This document shows positions 1 through 5,821 of a DNA stretch of 6,114 bases, one piece after another; position 1 is the first letter of the stretch; every line of letters starts with the position of its first letter. A program made the translations under genes and the position numbers. The notes below the pieces were generated by a model that worked only from the letters and a program-made list of their open reading frames with translations, did not search any database and had not been told where the DNA came from. The DNA is from Candidatus Nanopusillus sp. (GTDB lineage: Archaea > Nanobdellota > Nanobdellia > Nanobdellales > Nanobdellaceae), in contig JAWDOO010000016.1 in the NCBI GenBank assembly GCA_046533775.1, positions 1 through 6,114 on the forward strand, read 5' to 3'.

Positions 1-202
1 GGATTAATGTAGATTCATACAAATTTAATATATTTTCAAATAAATCATTTCCATATAATAATTTATATATTTCTCCATATTGTGGGAAAGTATTTGAATA
101 AAATTGAAATTCTTTATCTAACAAATCTAAGTTAGAAGCAAAATAAAATAAAATTAATAATAATACAACAATTGTATATAAATATAATTGACTACGAGCC
201 AT
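1..202 (-). CDS. Hypothetical secreted or membrane-anchored protein; only the N-terminal 67 codons are present (runs off the left edge); not in the supplied ORF track
   Basis: Minus-strand ATG at 202..200 opens a frame with no stop through position 2: MARSQLYLYTIVVLLLILFYFASNLDLLDKEFQFYSNTFPQYGEIYKLLYGNDLFENILNLYESTLI. A 67-codon open frame is unlikely by chance in DNA this AT-rich and stop-prone. The N-terminus (M-A-R-S followed by about 20 hydrophobic residues and then S-N-L) parallels the N-terminus of the upstream 604-aa ORF. The start overlaps that ORF's stop (ATGGCTCGTAG). Confidence 0.6.
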   Translation of the reverse strand, partial: MARSQLYLYTIVVLLLILFYFASNLDLLDKEFQFYSNTFPQYGEIYKLLYGNDLFENILNLYESTLI

Positions 203-2006
203 ATACAGAGAATTTAGAATATCCTAGGCCATATGGATAAACTATACTGCTATAAAATTTATACCCACTTGGTACTGGATTTACATTGAAATAACTCCAA
301 TAATTATATAATATTATTGGTATTAATTGATCTGAATAATAAACATTTACAGGATAACATTGGCTAATATTAATATTCGAAGATAATATATTATTCTGAT
401 AATTTGGGGGAATTGAATAATCTATTATTAATTGAGAATATGGTTCTACAAAATTTATAGATTGTGGATTATTATATGCCTGCATATTATAATTTGGTTC
501 ATTTCCATATAATATTCCTGTATTTGGATTATAATTTTTACCATAATAAATTATTACTGGATTGTAATAATTAAAATCTTCTGAATAATATATATTTTCC
601 AATTGATTTATTGTTAATGGTTGATTATAAAATGCAATTACATATATATTTCCTAAAAATGTACATTGAGGGGAATACATTGTTGTAGGGGTTCCTAAAT
701 ATATTGTTTCATTTGGTGGATAATATAAATTTAAAGGTTGCAAAGATGACCAACCAGGATAAGGTATTATTTGACCATAATATATTCCGCTTTGATTTAT
801 AAATCCTCCATAAAATTGCCCATTACTACTATTATATTCCCAAAAAACAAAAACCCACTGATTCATTGGTAAAGGATAATTTGGTAAATATCCTATATTA
901 CTTTCATCTACCCCCAAATAATATTGACCATTGTTTGGTAAAATTATTTGACTAAATGTAGAACCTGCATAATCATTTAATCCAGATAAATGAACTATTG
1001 CGCTTATATAATTTTCTCCAGAAGCACAGGAAGAAGAATAATAGTCATTTATATAAATCCAAGCAACAACAGTTATTGATGTATTACCTGATAATTGAGA
1101 AGGATAATATGAAGAATTTATTAATTGGAAATATTGATTATTATTTGTAAAAGCTATAACATTAGATTGATCTAAACATTGGGGAGAAATATATAATGTT
1201 TCCCAACTAAATGGAAATATAACATATTGTACTAATTGAGCAGGTAAATTGTTCACCAATTTATAATTGTTTGTTAAATTTAAATAATTAAAATTAGTAT
1301 TTTCAGCCCTAAATAATATAATTATTGGTTGTGTATAACCATTAGGTAAATTTAATGATATATTTATTATTGGAACATATCCATTAGATGTACTAATATA
1401 AGATACATTTAAATATTGGATTTGTATTGGATATAAATCAATATTATATGCATAAAATGAATATGGATCTATAGTATAATTAACAAAACTTGTTACATTT
1501 GTTAAATTTAAATATATAGACAAATTGTTACCAGAATAACTAGATATTGCTACCCCATACCAATCATTACTTGACGCAATATTTCCACATAAATTTCCTT
1601 GTGAATTATATATTAAGAAAAAATTATTAACTTGTCCACTTATATTTAAAGAATATAATAAATTGTTTCCTAAATATGGGAAGGGAAATAAAAATTCATA
1701 ACATGTTGAATTATAAGTATTATAAAAATTCAAACTATAATCTATAGTTTGCTTTAAATCATAATAATTAAAATAACCTGATAACATACTATTATATATT
1801 GAAGCTAATACATCGAATTGATTTGTCTCCAAATAACTAAGAAATTTATCATTATAAGTATTTGCTAAGGCGGTATATAATGTATATTTTTTATTAAATA
1901 TATTTATATATTGTGAAGGATTTTGGGGAAATTGTAAATTTGTTAAGAATACTAATATTAAAGATACAACCAATATTATTTCTACTAAATAATTAAATGA
2001 TCTCAT
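192..2006 (-). CDS. Large Asn/Tyr/Ser-rich, very low-charge extracellular or surface protein. It has an N-terminal hydrophobic signal/anchor and two tandem LamG/concanavalin-A-like (jelly-roll lectin fold) segments.
   Basis: 604-codon ORF; the next in-frame upstream codon set hits TAA, so ATG 2006 is the first possible start. The N-terminus is MRS followed by about 20 hydrophobic residues (FNYLVEIILVVSLILVFLTNL). Residues ~283-475 follow the Laminin_G_3-type pattern: F-x-NNNQY-x-Q-L...SITVVAWIY...NQWVFVFWEYNSSNGQFYGGFIN...ETIYLGT...FLGNIYVIAFYNQPLTINQLENIY. My hand count gives about 15 N-x-S/T sequons, 6 Cys, and only about 10 Lys+Arg in 604 aa. There is no C-terminal TM segment. Confidence 0.75.
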   Translation of the reverse strand: MRSFNYLVEIILVVSLILVFLTNLQFPQNPSQYINIFNKKYTLYTALANTYNDKFLSYLETNQFDVLASIYNSMLSGYFNYYDLKQTIDYSLNFYNTYNSTCYEFLFPFPYLGNNLLYSLNISGQVNNFFLIYNSQGNLCGNIASSNDWYGVAISSYSGNNLSIYLNLTNVTSFVNYTIDPYSFYAYNIDLYPIQIQYLNVSYISTSNGYVPIINISLNLPNGYTQPIIILFRAENTNFNYLNLTNNYKLVNNLPAQLVQYVIFPFSWETLYISPQCLDQSNVIAFTNNNQYFQLINSSYYPSQLSGNTSITVVAWIYINDYYSSSCASGENYISAIVHLSGLNDYAGSTFSQIILPNNGQYYLGVDESNIGYLPNYPLPMNQWVFVFWEYNSSNGQFYGGFINQSGIYYGQIIPYPGWSSLQPLNLYYPPNETIYLGTPTTMYSPQCTFLGNIYVIAFYNQPLTINQLENIYYSEDFNYYNPVIIYYGKNYNPNTGILYGNEPNYNMQAYNNPQSINFVEPYSQLIIDYSIPPNYQNNILSSNINISQCYPVNVYYSDQLIPIILYNYWSYFNVNPVPSGYKFYSSIVYPYGLGYSKFSVYGS

Positions 2007-2029
2007 ATACCTATTATGAAAAAAATAAG

Positions 2030-2040
2030 TTTATATATTT
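2030..2040. promoter_or_regulatory. Putative shared, near-palindromic TATA element in the 53-bp divergent spacer
   Basis: TTTATATATTT (2030..2040) lies about 26-28 nt from both divergent start codons (ATG 2006 on - and ATG 2060 on +). It is flanked by A-runs on each transcribed strand (2019..2025 on +; 2038..2044 read as A on -), which could act as BRE-like purine tracts. The spacing fits leaderless transcripts. In DNA this AT-rich, TATA-like strings are common. Confidence 0.35.
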
Positions 2041-2059
2041 TTTTAAGAATATGTAAAAA

Positions 2060-2938
2060 ATGAGTATATTAATGAAAATCTTATCATTTATAGAAAAAAA
2101 TTACAAGAAGTTTTTAATAATTTCTATATCAATATTTGCAATATTTTTTGGAATAATATTATTTAATTACTTTAAGTACGGTTATATAATTAACAAATCT
2201 ATTACAATTTCTGGAGGTTATATAACATTAATAAATAATAATTATCATATAACAAATTCAGAAATACAAAATGTATTAAATCAAATGAATGTTACTAATT
2301 ATATATTATATAATACACCAAATATTGTTTATATTGAATCAGGAAAACAAATTAATGAAACACTATTAATTAATTTATTTAACCAGGATTATAATATTAA
2401 ATTATCTCCTACAGATATATCAGTACAACAATATAGTTCTTTAGTAGGTAATCTTATATTTAATCAATTTTTATTCTTTGTAATTTTAACTATGATACTT
2501 ACAGCATTTGTAATATTTATAGCATTTAGAGCTTCTAAGATTACTTTAAATATAATATCTACAATATTATTTGATGTTGTTGGATTATTATCAATATTAT
2601 CTATGACAAAATATCCTATAGGAGCGAATGGATTTATTGGAATGCTAATGATTTTAGGATTTGCAATTGATAATAATGTAGTATTATCAACAAATATAGT
2701 AAAGGAAAAAGATAAACCATTTATTGAAAGGGTAAGAATGTCTTTTAGGGTTGGAATGTTAATGGAAGTTATTGCATTATATACATTACTTTTATTATAT
2801 TTTATAGTACCGGAACCATCAGTTGACGAATTTGCATTTGTATTATCTGTTGCAATAATATTAGATTTATTATATTATCTTATTGGAAATATACCATTAT
2901 ATAAATATTTTGAAGCTAAAAAAGAACAAGAAAACTAA
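2060..2938 (+). CDS. secF: SecF-like protein-export membrane protein (SecD/SecF family six-TM unit)
   Basis: 292 aa with the SecF topology: TM1 (res ~17-37), a ~90-aa extracytoplasmic loop, then five clustered TMs. After TM1, SITISGGYITL resembles the GIDFTGGT motif of SecF/SecD. LGFAIDNNVVLSTNIVKE sits where the G-x-S-V-D-D-x-IV-x-x-DRIRE segment lies. Length matches archaeal SecF (~280-300 aa) rather than SecD. Confidence 0.6.
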   Translation: MSILMKILSFIEKNYKKFLIISISIFAIFFGIILFNYFKYGYIINKSITISGGYITLINNNYHITNSEIQNVLNQMNVTNYILYNTPNIVYIESGKQINETLLINLFNQDYNIKLSPTDISVQQYSSLVGNLIFNQFLFFVILTMILTAFVIFIAFRASKITLNIISTILFDVVGLLSILSMTKYPIGANGFIGMLMILGFAIDNNVVLSTNIVKEKDKPFIERVRMSFRVGMLMEVIALYTLLLLYFIVPEPSVDEFAFVLSVAIILDLLYYLIGNIPLYKYFEAKKEQEN

Positions 2939-3393
2939 ACATCAACAACAATTTCTGCACTCCAATAGGTTTTCATTATTTTCGTAATATTTATATCATG
3001 TAAAGTAACTGCTTTAACTTCTTTTTTAAATCCATGTTTTTCTTTATCGTATTTTTCTCCATAAACCTCAAATCTGCATACCCATTTATATTTTTTACTT
3101 TCAACCCTAACTCTCTTTAAATTTTTTACTCTTATATCTCTTACAGCAAACTTATCTTTATAAAAAACCTCTTCTAAACATATTCTAGCAACATTATATA
3201 TAATTTCCAATATATTTTTTCCTTCAATTACAAATTGTTTCGATTCTTTTTTCTCAACTTTCTCATTATCGTATATAATATTAAACATTCCCAATATTAA
3301 TGCCTCAATTGCTCTCTTTGGTGTATTCCCATAACCAACAATCTTTATATCTGCAGTATGATCTTCATATTCATATTCCCTCAAAACAGTCAT
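2935..3393 (-). CDS. Archease (activator/chaperone of the RtcB tRNA-splicing ligase and RNA-modifying enzymes)
   Basis: 152 aa. The N-terminal YEYEDHTADIKIVGYG carries the archease signature (E-x-x-x-HTAD-x-x-x-x-x-x-G). Size and the C-terminal KAVTLHDINI...AEIVVDV are typical of the family. Confidence 0.85.
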   Translation of the reverse strand: MTVLREYEYEDHTADIKIVGYGNTPKRAIEALILGMFNIIYDNEKVEKKESKQFVIEGKNILEIIYNVARICLEEVFYKDKFAVRDIRVKNLKRVRVESKKYKWVCRFEVYGEKYDKEKHGFKKEVKAVTLHDINITKIMKTYWSAEIVVDV

Positions 3394-3511: not shown

Positions 3512-4018
3512 ATGGAAATATTGGATATAAAATTACCCGACAATATAATAAAAGTAAATGTATATTCAAGTTCTTTTAGAGATTTAGAAAAAATACCAAA
3601 GGATTATACATGTGAAGGAAAAAACATATCATTTCCAATAGTAATTGAAGAAATACCAAACAATACAAAAAGTATGTTATTATTTGTAGAAGATCCTGAT
3701 GCACCTGGTGGTATATTTAAACACTGGATTGCATATATAAATAAACCAATAAAAAATATACCTCCAGGAATAAAAAAGGAAAGAATTGTTAAAATAGATG
3801 ATGTACAAATTATTCAGGGTAAAAATGATTTTGGAAAAATTGGATATGATGGTCCATGTCCTCCAAAAGGTCATGTTAAACATAGATATTATACAATAAT
3901 ATTATTTCTAAATAAAGAATTATATATAGATGGATGGTTCTTTGATGATTTTATTAGATATGTAAAGGAAGAAAATATTATTGGATATGGATATTTTATA
4001 GGTACATATGAAAGATAA
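3512..4018 (+). CDS. PEBP-family protein (YbhB/YbcL, Raf-kinase-inhibitor-like)
   Basis: 168 aa carrying the family motifs: LLFVEDPDAPGG (DPDAP), HW, GYDGPCPPKGHVKHRYYTIILFL (G-P-x-P-P-x-G-x-HRY). Size is typical of prokaryotic YbhB-type PEBPs. Confidence 0.85.
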   Translation: MEILDIKLPDNIIKVNVYSSSFRDLEKIPKDYTCEGKNISFPIVIEEIPNNTKSMLLFVEDPDAPGGIFKHWIAYINKPIKNIPPGIKKERIVKIDDVQIIQGKNDFGKIGYDGPCPPKGHVKHRYYTIILFLNKELYIDGWFFDDFIRYVKEENIIGYGYFIGTYER

Positions 4019-4049: not shown

Positions 4050-4442
4050 ATGGAAAATAATCAAATATCAAAAGAACAAATTAATGATATAATAAAAGAA
4101 TTATGGAATAAAGGATATACACCATCACAAATTGGGAGAGAATTAAAGGAAAAATATGGTATAAAGGTTAAAGAAATATTAAATAAAAAATTGGTAAAAT
4201 ATGCGATAAAAGAATTGAATTTAAAACAAGAAATACCAGAAGATTTATTATATTTATTTAAAAAAATAAATAGAATGCTAAAACATTTAGAATTAAATAG
4301 AAAGGATATTGTAACAAAGAAAAAATTGGAAGAACTTGAAAGTAAAGTAAAAAGCTTAATAAAATACTATAAGAAAAATAAAAAATTACCACAAACATTT
4401 GAATATAGTAGAGATATAGCAAAGATGTATGGATATTCATGA
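4050..4442 (+). CDS. rps15: 30S ribosomal protein uS15 (archaeal S15P / eukaryotic S13e type), short form
   Basis: 130 aa. KGYTPSQIGRELKEKYGI...EIPEDLLYLFKKINRMLKHLELNRKDIVTKKKLEELESKVKSLIKYYKKNKKLP aligns with the archaeal S15 core as I recall it from Sulfolobus: RGYPPSMIG..RDQYGV...[52 protein letters not shown]. An in-frame TAA at 4041..4043 rules out a longer N-terminus. Confidence 0.9.
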   Translation: MENNQISKEQINDIIKELWNKGYTPSQIGRELKEKYGIKVKEILNKKLVKYAIKELNLKQEIPEDLLYLFKKINRMLKHLELNRKDIVTKKKLEELESKVKSLIKYYKKNKKLPQTFEYSRDIAKMYGYS

Positions 4443-5821
4443 ACAATAGATTTTTATCTTATATAGAAGAGATATCTAATAGAATAAATAAGTCAGTAGA
4501 AAATAATCAAAATTTTTTAATTATATCTTCATTAAATCCTGATGGTTTATCTTCATCAATATTTTTATTAAAATATTTATATGAAAAAAATTCTGAAGTT
4601 CATCTAACATTTTTAGATTATATAAGCAAAAAAGAAATTAATAATTTATTTTTAGGTGAAAGTGGGTATGAATATGATAACATAATATTTTTAGATACTG
4701 GATCTATATTTTCAGATGATGTAATAAAATTAAATAAAGATTTAAATAAAAAGATATATATAATAGATCATCATTTTTTATCAATAAAAGATATTGAATT
4801 AAATAATGTTGTAAATCTTAACCCAAATATTTTTAATTTAGATGGATATAAAGAAATATCTACATCAAATATATTATATTATTTATATCAAAGCTTAAAT
4901 CCATATGATAAAAATATTTTATATTTATCATTAGTTGGAAATTTATATGACTTTGATAAACCAAATAATGAAATATTAAATGAATTAATTGATAGAGAAA
5001 TATTATTAAAATATACTGGAATAGATCTTCCAGGTATATTTACAAAACCTTTATATAAAGTATTAAGCTCTCCATTTAATTTTTATATTCCAAACATTAC
5101 TGGAAGTGATGAAAAAGCTTTAGAATTAGTAAAGGAATTAAATATAAAGGATAAAGGAACTGCTGGTATATTTTATATAGATTTATCTGAAGAAGATATT
5201 AAAAAAATAGTTAGTAATATAATAAAATTAAAGTTAAAGTATAATTTACAAAGAACTGACGATTTAATAGGCGAAATATATAAGATTAATAAAAATGAAG
5301 AGATTGGAGATTTATTAGAATTATTATATAATATTGAAGGATTAATTGAAAATAATAAAATAGAAGGGATATTATATTTCATTAAAAAATATAATATTGA
5401 TATTTTAAGAGAATCTGAAAATAATTTAAGATTACAATTTTCAAAATTATTATATGATATAATAAATAATAATGTACAGATAAAAGATGAAAATGGATTA
5501 AAAATAATAACAATTGAGAAAAATTATGGAAACGGATATTTTTTATCTTTATTATTAAATCTTCTAATTAGAGAAAATATAATAAATGGAAAGGTTATTA
5601 TTTTATTATATAAAATAAATAATTTTTATAGAGGAATAATTAAGACAAATAAAGATGAAAATAAAAAATTAATAAATAATATATTGAAAAAGTTATTCGA
5701 TAATAATATAATTTATTATTCTAGTTTTGATAATTTTGGAGGTTTTTTATTAGATATAAATAATTATGAGGAATTTATTAAAAAATTAAAAATAAATTTA
5801 AGACAAGAAAATATTATATAA
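4439..5821 (+). CDS. RecJ-like DHH-family protein (archaeal Cdc45/GAN homologue) with partly degenerate catalytic motifs
   Basis: 460 aa. DHH motif II (IIFLDTGS, D86) and motif III (IYIIDHHF, D110-H111-H112) are present. ITGSDEKALELVKEL matches the ITGDERKAIEWL segment of Thermococcus GAN as I recall it. Motif I reads SSLNPDG instead of H-x-D-x-DG. The DHHA1 GGGH position reads FGGF (res 433-436). The ATG overlaps the rps15 stop (ATGA). Confidence 0.8.
   Translation: MNNRFLSYIEEISNRINKSVENNQNFLIISSLNPDGLSSSIFLLKYLYEKNSEVHLTFLDYISKKEINNLFLGESGYEYDNIIFLDTGSIFSDDVIKLNKDLNKKIYIIDHHFLSIKDIELNNVVNLNPNIFNLDGYKEISTSNILYYLYQSLNPYDKNILYLSLVGNLYDFDKPNNEILNELIDREILLKYTGIDLPGIFTKPLYKVLSSPFNFYIPNITGSDEKALELVKELNIKDKGTAGIFYIDLSEEDIKKIVSNIIKLKLKYNLQRTDDLIGEIYKINKNEEIGDLLELLYNIEGLIENNKIEGILYFIKKYNIDILRESENNLRLQFSKLLYDIINNNVQIKDENGLKIITIEKNYGNGYFLSLLLNLLIRENIINGKVIILLYKINNFYRGIIKTNKDENKKLINNILKKLFDNNIIYYSSFDNFGGFLLDINNYEEFIKKLKINLRQENII

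Follow-up and report, generated by a model that had tools for sequence, protein, structure and literature searches.

An overlapping gene pair next to secF in Nanoarchaeota encodes predicted N-terminally anchored surface proteins with candidate class III signals

The window, by which we mean the whole stretch of DNA analysed here, comprises 6,114 nucleotides (nt) of contig JAWDOO010000016.1 from a Candidatus Nanopusillus genome and has a G+C content of about 21%. Its minus strand carries an open reading frame (ORF) of 604 amino acids (aa), ORF1, and the beginning of a second frame, ORF2, which opens with MARSQLYLYTIVVLLLILFYFASNL and is cut off by the left end of the window after 67 codons. The coordinates and N-termini that an initial annotation had given for both frames, and the 11-nt overlap that it had noted between them, proved to be exact (Table 1). 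It is probable that the two genes encode a co-expressed pair of N-terminally anchored surface proteins, conserved across the Nanoarchaeota that we examined.

With Nps_01540 of Candidatus Nanopusillus acidilobi, ORF1 shares 91% identity. Its identity is 83-92% with further proteins from Nanopusillus and falls to 58-65% with those of Nanobdella aerobiophila, Nanoarchaeota archaeon YN1 and the remaining Nanopusillaceae. The SecF protein of the window is 92-93% identical to that of Nanobsidianus stetteri. Judging by these identities, the source is a hot-spring nanoarchaeote of the Nanopusillus/Nanobsidianus group, whose members are obligate ectosymbionts of Crenarchaeota (PMC4935971). The reduced, host-dependent archaeon that had been suspected is thus confirmed by the match to N. 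acidilobi. A look-up of the exact ORF1 sequence gave no record, and orthologues of 91-92% identity stood in for it.

A search anchored on SecF retrieved 16 further loci, and the junction between ORF1 and ORF2 could be inspected in 16 genomes or contigs, the window included. In all of them (Nanopusillus, Nanobsidianus, Nanobdella, YN1, Nanoclepta, MC-1 and others) the offset between the two genes is exactly -11 nt, a conservation far above chance. The order secF-ORF1-ORF2 is kept at ORF1 identities down to 23-37%, and ORF1 adjoins secF in divergent orientation in every recovered locus, across a gap of 41-71 nt in those with a junction. The scan recovered no Nanoarchaeum equitans locus. In the window, ORF1 ends with TAT GGC TCG TAG (Y-G-S-stop), and ORF2 opens with ATG GCT CGT AGT (M-A-R-S). 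The codon for Arg3 of ORF2 is CGT in all loci, although this codon type is rare in a genome of about 21% G+C; it is the sole arginine codon compatible with the ORF1 stop, to which it contributes the T. The last residue of ORF1 can be S, A or T, its codon always being NCG. Since CGT is invariant though rare, and since the last residue of ORF1 varies, selection appears to act on Arg3 of ORF2 itself and on the overlap itself.

No Shine-Dalgarno-like motif was found upstream of the ORF2 ATG. From this and the invariance of the overlap, we naturally infer termination-reinitiation coupling, which would lead to roughly equimolar synthesis of the two proteins. The co-transcription and coupled translation proposed in the initial annotation are therefore supported. 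In the spacer between ORF1 and secF, a TATA-like element lies about 25 nt from each of the two start codons. By inspection, this arrangement suggests a shared bidirectional promoter, and the ORF1 and secF mRNAs probably have very short leaders or none.

Some public gene calls miss the N-termini that matter here. Several ORF2 homologues are called 40-55 nt too far downstream, so that the overlapping MVRSQ start is lost, and several ORF1 homologues are called from an internal methionine (MYLVE...), without their MRSF leader. In the cases of L007:7022, L009:9022 and L009:7989, the DNA shows the conserved MVRSQ... and MRSFMY... starts. As a consequence of such truncated calls, the leader that signal and pilin predictors need is lost.

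Table 1. Features of the window; positions refer to its forward strand.
Feature	Position	Strand	Remarks
ORF2 start	1..202	minus	runs off the left end
Nps_01545 orthologue ORF2, first 67 codons	2..202	minus	translation
ORF2 leader M-A-R-S (191-202) and hydrophobic helix, residues 5-25 (128-190), QLYLYTIVVLLLILFYFASNL	128..202	minus	
Overlap ATGGCTCGTAG; ORF1 stop (192-194) within ORF2 codons 3-4, ORF2 start at 200-202	192..202	minus	proposed termination-reinitiation site
ORF1, 604 aa, orthologue of Nps_01540; predicted N-terminally anchored, K/R-poor, glycosylation-rich extracellular protein	192..2006	minus	ORF list, orthologues, composition
ORF1 leader M-R-S, putative class III signal	1998..2006	minus	proposed cut after Ser3
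ORF1 hydrophobic N-terminal helix, residues 4-24, FNYLVEIILVVSLILVFLTNL	1935..1997	minus	invariant Glu9 (+6)
LamG/ConA-like module apparently inserted in ORF1 core, about residues 285-525	432..1154	minus	Laminin_G_3 match, absent from short forms
Divergent ORF1/secF spacer, 53 bp, A/T-rich, TATA-like element AAAAAAATATATAAAC	2007..2059		spacing and element conserved across loci
secF, 292 aa	2060..2938	plus	Pfam SecD_SecF_C, E=4.4e-16
Archease	2935..3393	minus	
PEBP-family protein	3512..4018	plus	
Ribosomal protein S15	4050..4442	plus	
DHH/RecJ-like protein	4439..5821	plus	
ASCH-domain gene		minus	runs off the right end; overlaps the DHH gene by 8 nt (5814-5821)

The initial annotation had tentatively read both N-termini as pilin-like class III signals. 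In such signals a basic residue at position -2 and a small residue at position -1 precede a hydrophobic stretch, and the predicted N-termini of both families have this form. Among 29 ORF1 homologues the residues at -2/-1 are RS (18), KS (4), RT (4), KA (2) or RG (1), and the leader has three residues in 27 of them. The ORF1 motif can be written as M-[K/R]1-3-[S/T/A/G]-[F/L/I]-x-[Y/F]-x-[V/I]-E-[I/L/M]-[I/L/V]-L, with F4, Y6, L7, E9, I10, I11 and L12 as invariant columns; two homologues have MKRG followed by LSF.VEIIL. Over homologues of 23-37% identity, the first 12 residues of ORF1 (MRSFNYLVEIIL) rank first in conservation among 264 twelve-residue windows, scoring 3.50 bits where the mean is 2.53. 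Because the codons of this segment vary synonymously, selection acts at the level of the protein.

In the ORF2 family, -2/-1 is RS in 32 of 32 sequences, a further homologue being discussed below. The motif M-x-R-[S/N]-Q-[L/F]-[Y/F]-[L/I] is conserved, M1, R3, Q5 and L8 are invariant across homologues of 26-66% identity, and the N-terminal 12-mer ranks second among 267 windows. As only the first 11 nt are dual-coded, the stretch from Gln5 to Leu8 must be conserved in its own right. The putative +1 residue is Gln, and the helix of ORF2 has no acidic residue. The mean Kyte-Doolittle hydropathy of residues 4-24 is 2.16 in ORF1 and 1.64 in ORF2. In both families a helix of about 20 residues directly follows the candidate site and would, by prediction, be retained in the mature protein. 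Pilins typically have their best-conserved stretch at the N-terminus, which is not usual in simple membrane anchors.

Serine at -1, in place of the usual Gly or Ala, had been a reason for caution. This worry is largely removed by the pilins of the lineage itself. Among 318 proteins returned by the ORF2 search, most of which match only its C-terminal module, forty that share this module begin with M(x0-4)-[K/R]-[S/T/A]-ISPI[IV]A... and have UpsA-like/TIGR02537 pilin domains. After the K or R, the -1 residue of these forty pilins is S in 37, T in one and A in one (KS 28, RS 9), and their leaders have three or five residues, half of them three. One of them, P0114, served as positive control (NCBIfam UpsA at 2.9e-18, TIGR02537 with 29 bits against a 20-bit cut-off, Pilin_N at 2.4e-4). 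Serine at -1 and three-residue leaders thus appear to be normal for genuine class III proteins of this lineage, and the ORF1 site admits only S, T, A or G. The Sulfolobales enzyme PibD also cleaves leaders as short as three residues (PMC4187195, PMC10117864). About 14 other proteins with the ORF2 module have ordinary Sec signals of the type ...FVYSQG / MKLLKIFIFGLMVILISRFVYSQG.

The remainder of ORF1 is modular. With the ORF1 alignment as query, HMMER retrieved short-form homologues of 334-365 aa from Nanoclepta minutus and other nanoarchaea. Since these short forms match the ORF1 profile only at positions 1-284 and at the C-terminus, in two stretches, the Nanopusillaceae protein can be described as a short-form core with an apparently inserted LamG-like module of about 240 aa. 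A standalone protein, P0147, matches profile positions 301-511. Residues 303-399 match Pfam Laminin_G_3 (PF13385) with E=8.3e-5, but their 23.2 bits fall short of the cut-off of 27.6, and two orthologues carry the NCBI name "LamG domain-containing protein". A profile of the short-form family found no match among PDB sequences. The lectin fold initially proposed is therefore weakly supported for ORF1: the sub-threshold match speaks for it, and the structure models described below do not confirm it.

Beyond the window, ORF2 was read from relatives, in which it extends to 648-700 aa: 671 aa in a 92%-identical contig (L002), 664 aa in YN1 and 648 aa in Nanobdella. The left-hand frame is thus long and conserved, and the doubt about the pair that a short and unconserved frame would have raised does not arise. 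A core of about 293 aa stands alone in Nanoclepta-like genomes (198-396 aa), and in Nanopusillaceae this core has acquired a DUF2341/ConA-like module of about 375 aa, which lies outside the window. The match of ORF2 (P0021) to Pfam DUF2341 (PF10102) stays below the cut-off (E=0.082, 13.8 bits against 23.4); PF10102 is precomputed for the orthologues P0051 and P0056 and for the paralogue P0084. Proteins with DUF2341 have been predicted to be adhesins of archaeal type IV pili (PMC4858521).

The ORF2 module is shared and exchanged. The C-terminal 375 aa of ORF2 are 63-82% identical to modules of UpsA-like pilins and of paralogues with Sec signals. In P0047, P0048 and P0052 the ORF2 cores are 93-94% identical, and the C-terminal 240 aa are different and unalignable. 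Because near-identical cores carry unalignable C-termini, this mosaicism points to recombination, probably as cassette exchange within a large family of surface-protein genes. This is in keeping with a published finding that non-synonymous diversity is raised in "hypothetical external" proteins of nanoarchaea (PMC6142677). The variable part is the C-terminal ConA-like domain, about residues 431-671 (P0021 compared with P0047/P0048/P0052, P0070 and P0078), which shares 72-73% identity with domains of paralogues that are UpsA-like pilins. Two paralogues, P0066/Nps_03075 (1052 aa) and P0046 (851 aa), have the DUF2341/ConA-like module in two tandem copies behind a Sec signal or an N-terminus of the type MRS-DIPAIIILIV...; as these N-termini differ, the module is delivered by at least three types of N-terminal targeting. 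Cultured N. acidilobi 7A (L001:11808-13770, CP010514) has ORF2 in two pieces, Nps_01545 (482 aa) and Nps_01550 (160 aa); the second continues a variant C-terminal module that is intact in the protein P0052 from a metagenome-assembled genome. Either a frameshift or stop arose in culture, or the split reflects an error of sequencing.

The composition of both proteins speaks for a location outside the cell. Lys and Arg together make up 1.7% of ORF1 and 1.6% of ORF2, compared with 12-24% in cytoplasmic proteins of the same window; each protein has 15 N-x-S/T sequons; and six Cys are invariant in ORF1. The surface location claimed in the initial annotation is supported by these three features. The sequons are not significantly enriched (15 against 11.7+/-3.0 on shuffling, p=0.18), so that their number reflects a composition rich in N, S and T and not an additional selection for sequons.

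The initial annotation had also regarded the N-terminal segments of ORF1 and ORF2 as paralogous, which we could not substantiate. The gapless alignment of the two segments has 6 identities in 21 positions (p=0.069 by shuffling), and a hydrophobic 21-mer of the unrelated neighbour SecF reaches 7 of 21 against the ORF1 helix. BLASTP of the first 97 residues gave E=0.022. With hhalign, the two orthologue alignments gave E=0.27 and a probability of 0.2%, and deeper alignments that included the short forms gave E=0.003 and 11%, with confidence only over the 25-residue helix. Even the shared R-S is partly forced in ORF2, because the Ser4 codon, AGT, shares its AG with the TAG stop of ORF1. No homology was detectable between the ectodomains, and a patch common to both (N-x-x-C-P-[IV]-N...YY) is not significant. 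On the basis of BLASTP, the shuffle test, both hhalign runs and a further local multi-alignment run, we rejected paralogy as unsupported.

The annotation table of N. acidilobi lists a pilus ATPase (Nps_02250) and a platform protein (Nps_02245), and the organism expresses archaellum proteins. Two distant relatives have pilus genes near the locus. In L008, a T2SSE ATPase gene lies 3.2 kb from the locus and adjoins a gene for a 673-aa protein, which we take to be the platform protein by synteny with N. acidilobi, as it has no Pfam match. In L009, a Nanoclepta-like metagenomic contig, a Peptidase_A24 gene lies 1.7 kb from the ORF1 homologue (27.4 bits against a cut-off of 26.5). This gene (L009:5505-6341) is situated beside an HxsD/radical-SAM/SPASM cluster (4724-6574), two genes from archease-secF-ORF1-ORF2.

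Several observations weigh against processing by a prepilin peptidase. The enzyme itself was not found in Nanopusillus, neither in the annotation table of N. acidilobi nor by a scan with the L009 peptidase, so that of the expected machinery only the ATPase and the platform protein are accounted for there. Within 10 kb on either side of the locus, Nanopusillus, YN1 and Nanobdella have no pilus gene, the neighbours being housekeeping genes. ORF1, ORF2 (P0021), P0148 and P0151, short forms included, gave no match to a profile of pilin or archaellin N-terminal domains, neither to TIGR02537 in NCBIfam at E<=10 nor to Pilin_N (PF07790) or Arch_flagellin (PF01917) in Pfam at E<=0.1-1. The pilin-like reading thus gains from the -2/-1 residues and the conserved N-termini and loses from these profile searches, which speak against membership of a recognised pilin family. 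The Ser4 of ORF2 is partly dictated by the stop codon of ORF1; in L008, where ORF1 ends with TAA, the corresponding residue is Asn (AAT), which makes a poor site for a prepilin peptidase. The helix of ORF1 is followed by F-P-Q-N-P-S and not continued as a long alpha-1 helix, and a [K/R]-small-hydrophobic start is also expected of an uncleaved type II anchor under the positive-inside rule.

Nps_01540 and Nps_01545 were undetected, without abundance values, in the N. acidilobi proteome, which is weak counter-evidence because trypsin yields only two to four usable peptides from each; its authors gave the same reason for a missing surface-layer (S-layer) protein (PMC4935971). In the published table, the orthologues of ORF1 and ORF2 lack the "+" that archaellins have in a column that is presumably a signal-peptide flag, which would suit uncleaved anchors. 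The AlphaFold2 models also count against a pilin-type reading in that they are unreliable, with a mean predicted local distance difference test score (pLDDT) of 42 for ORF1 (21 sequences in the alignment) and 44 for ORF2 (27 sequences). Values are below 50 across the LamG-like region of ORF1, and only residues 300-410 of ORF2, the DUF2341 region, reach 70-85. A Foldseek comparison of ORF1 with the PDB gave nothing meaningful, and that of ORF2 gave weak matches to L-type lectins, galectins and LamG domains (E>=5.8e-3). Because both models are poor, they permit no structural conclusion on a pilin-type helix-on-sheet fold.

A possible explanation, which we consider somewhat less probable than cleavage, is that the pair forms a surface heterodimer with uncleaved type II signal-anchors. 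Such proteins would be inserted by the signal recognition particle and Sec, keep their full N-termini and stand as stalks through the pseudoperiplasm and S-layer without any pilus machinery, and Glu9 of ORF1 and Gln5, Tyr7 and Tyr9 of ORF2 would mediate the pairing of the helices in the membrane. The failure of the pilin-domain profiles, the Asn at -1 in L008 and the helix-breaking FPQNPS of ORF1 are all in line with this idea, as are a conserved neighbour that is secF and not a pilus gene, a hydrophobic stretch of 21 residues after only one to three basic residues, and the single transmembrane helix that the published table gives for each protein; coupled translation would suit a heterodimer equally well. 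However, plain anchors are rarely best conserved in their first 12 residues over identities of 23-37%, and the restriction of ORF1 to S, T, A or G at -1 and to K or R at -2 is the class III rule, as followed by the pilins of the lineage. Moreover, the module in the ORF2 ectodomain is otherwise found on pilin N-termini or behind Sec signals. It is for the -2/-1 rule, the N-terminal conservation, the invariant Glu of ORF1 and the module shared with pilins that we favour the class III reading, according to which the M-R-S and M-A-R-S leaders would be cut by a prepilin peptidase; this is plausible, but unproven.

Classical (class I) Sec signal peptides, cut by signal peptidase I to leave the proteins released or associated with the S-layer, are hardly to be expected. 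The genome does encode signal peptidase I (Nps_01795), SecD and SecF, and some paralogues with the same C-terminal module have clear Sec signals of the type mentioned above, but the hydrophobic region of ORF1 and ORF2 has a length of about 21 residues, and that of the lineage's Sec signals only about 12. By inspection, no small-x-small site follows the helix (...FLTNLQFP, ...FASNLDLL), and it would be odd if the N-terminal half of a peptide to be discarded were the most conserved part of the whole protein. It is also very unlikely that ORF1 and ORF2 are functionally unrelated neighbours, or accessories of the Sec translocon such as a SecD-like partner of SecF, with the overlap as a by-product of compaction. 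The extreme compactness of the genome, in which short overlaps are common (S15/DHH 4 nt, secF/archease 4 nt, DHH/ASCH 8 nt), and the conserved linkage to secF would fit this explanation. Compaction alone, however, would not hold an offset of exactly -11 nt and a CGT codon for Arg over such divergence, and it is in one and the same lineage that the two proteins acquired modules of the lectin type. A role as SecD substitute was rejected, as the proteins have one N-terminal transmembrane helix and not six, match neither SecD nor Sec_GG, and coexist in N. acidilobi with a genuine SecD encoded elsewhere (Nps_01290).

Together, our data suggest a model in which ORF1 and ORF2, transcribed divergently from secF, together form a complex on the cell surface that only Nanoarchaeota possess. 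A ribosome that ends ORF1 at TAG would reinitiate 8 nt upstream at the ATG of ORF2, so that the two proteins would be made at a ratio of about 1:1. Each would insert with its N-terminus inside and its C-terminus outside by means of the one N-terminal helix, exposing a large, K/R-poor, N-glycosylated ectodomain. The leaders would be removed at the cytoplasmic face by the A24 prepilin peptidase of the lineage, and the mature helices would then pair, the Glu at +6 of ORF1 playing the role of Glu5 in type IV pilins and ORF2 resembling, by its lack of an acidic residue, cap subunits such as GspK. The type IV pilus machinery may then mount the pair, which would resemble minor pilins or tip adhesins, or the pair may be displayed in the manner of bindosomes. 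In the Nanopusillaceae, the cores would have gained ConA-like modules (LamG, DUF2341), which probably bind glycans of the host surface, and exchange of the ORF2 module with the large family of UpsA-like pilin genes would have diversified their specificity. We propose this explanation as a whole, a translationally coupled pair of surface adhesins with class III processing, only tentatively.

At the tips of bacterial type IV systems there are large subunits that resemble pilins and bear an additional globular or lectin domain, such as GspK-GspI-GspJ or the lectin-bearing CofB and TcpB, in which some subunits have an acidic residue near +5 and the capping subunit has none. The likeness to the present pair, with a Glu at +6 in ORF1 and none in ORF2, is an analogy only: neither the sequences nor, reliably, the structures are similar, the Glu stands at +6 and not at +5, and the present system is archaeal, with a filament association that is only proposed. 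We consider it unlikely that the pair is the conserved core of a nanoarchaeal host-attachment organelle, a complex of tip or cap that would have arisen from type IV pilins and in which the acid-less ORF2 caps the Glu-bearing ORF1, and in which the lectin modules, above all the recombining ORF2 cassette common to dozens of UpsA-like pilin genes, would set the host S-layer glycans recognised and hence the host range.

Like ORF1 and ORF2, UpsA, UpsB and other PibD substrates of Sulfolobales have a basic and then a small residue before a hydrophobic helix of about 20 residues, and leaders of down to three residues (PMC4187195, PMC10117864). Nanopusillus paralogues with the C-terminal module of ORF2 match NCBIfam UpsA at 2.9e-18, but ORF1 and ORF2 do not, and their sequences after the site (FNYLVEIIL and QLYLYTIV) differ from the ISPIIA motif. 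They are also four to five times larger than pilins, and their usual -1 residue is Ser and not Gly or Ala. DUF2341 proteins of archaeal type IV pilus loci (arCOG03508), which have been likened to PilY1 (Makarova et al. 2016, PMC4858521), resemble ORF2, in which a DUF2341-like segment is followed by a putative ConA-like jelly roll; they are predicted to be extracellular adhesins linked to pilins, which is also the role predicted for ORF2. In contrast to them, the Nanopusillus ORF2 lies outside a pilus operon, carries the module on a core of about 293 aa that is specific to the lineage and has an N-terminal helix of its own, and is apparently coupled in translation to a second, unrelated large protein. 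The bindosome proteins GlcS and AraS of Sulfolobus set a precedent for large surface proteins that have class III signals without being pilins; they are processed by PibD, and a type IV pilus-like system displays them, although they do not form a pilus (PMC4187195). They are, however, solute-binding proteins of ABC transporters, a kind of domain that ORF1 and ORF2 lack, and there are no Bas-like genes near the pair.

The other genes of the window are closely packed as well. secF and the archease gene are convergent with an overlap of 4 nt (2935-2938), and the genes for S15 and the DHH/RecJ-like protein overlap by the 4 nt ATGA (4439-4442). Short overlaps of this kind across the window are typical of a highly compacted genome.

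A literature search found no paper that treats the ORF1-ORF2 gene pair, and a 2026 preprint on Nanobdellota genomes does not mention pili. The locus is a two-gene unit whose pilin-like N-termini are missed by standard pilin profiles and whose lectin-type ectodomains are modular and exchanged between strains. The use of serine as the usual -1 residue in this lineage is the likely reason for the missed profiles, and a FlaFind-type motif would presumably miss the N-termini of ORF1 and ORF2, too. For one clade of nanoarchaeal pilus ATPases, an earlier review of archaeal type IV pili noted that the pilins had not been identified (PMC4858521).

The locus offers a concrete target for the question of how hosts are recognised and held by Nanoarchaeota and other DPANN archaea. 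As large proteins with putative pilin-like signals and predicted adhesin modules, ORF1 and ORF2 may be relevant to DPANN symbiosis, and they are candidates for gripping the host cell. If the leaders are indeed cleaved, archaeal prepilin peptidases would have a wider range of recognised substrates, and work on the site of contact between symbiont and host would have specific proteins to localise there.

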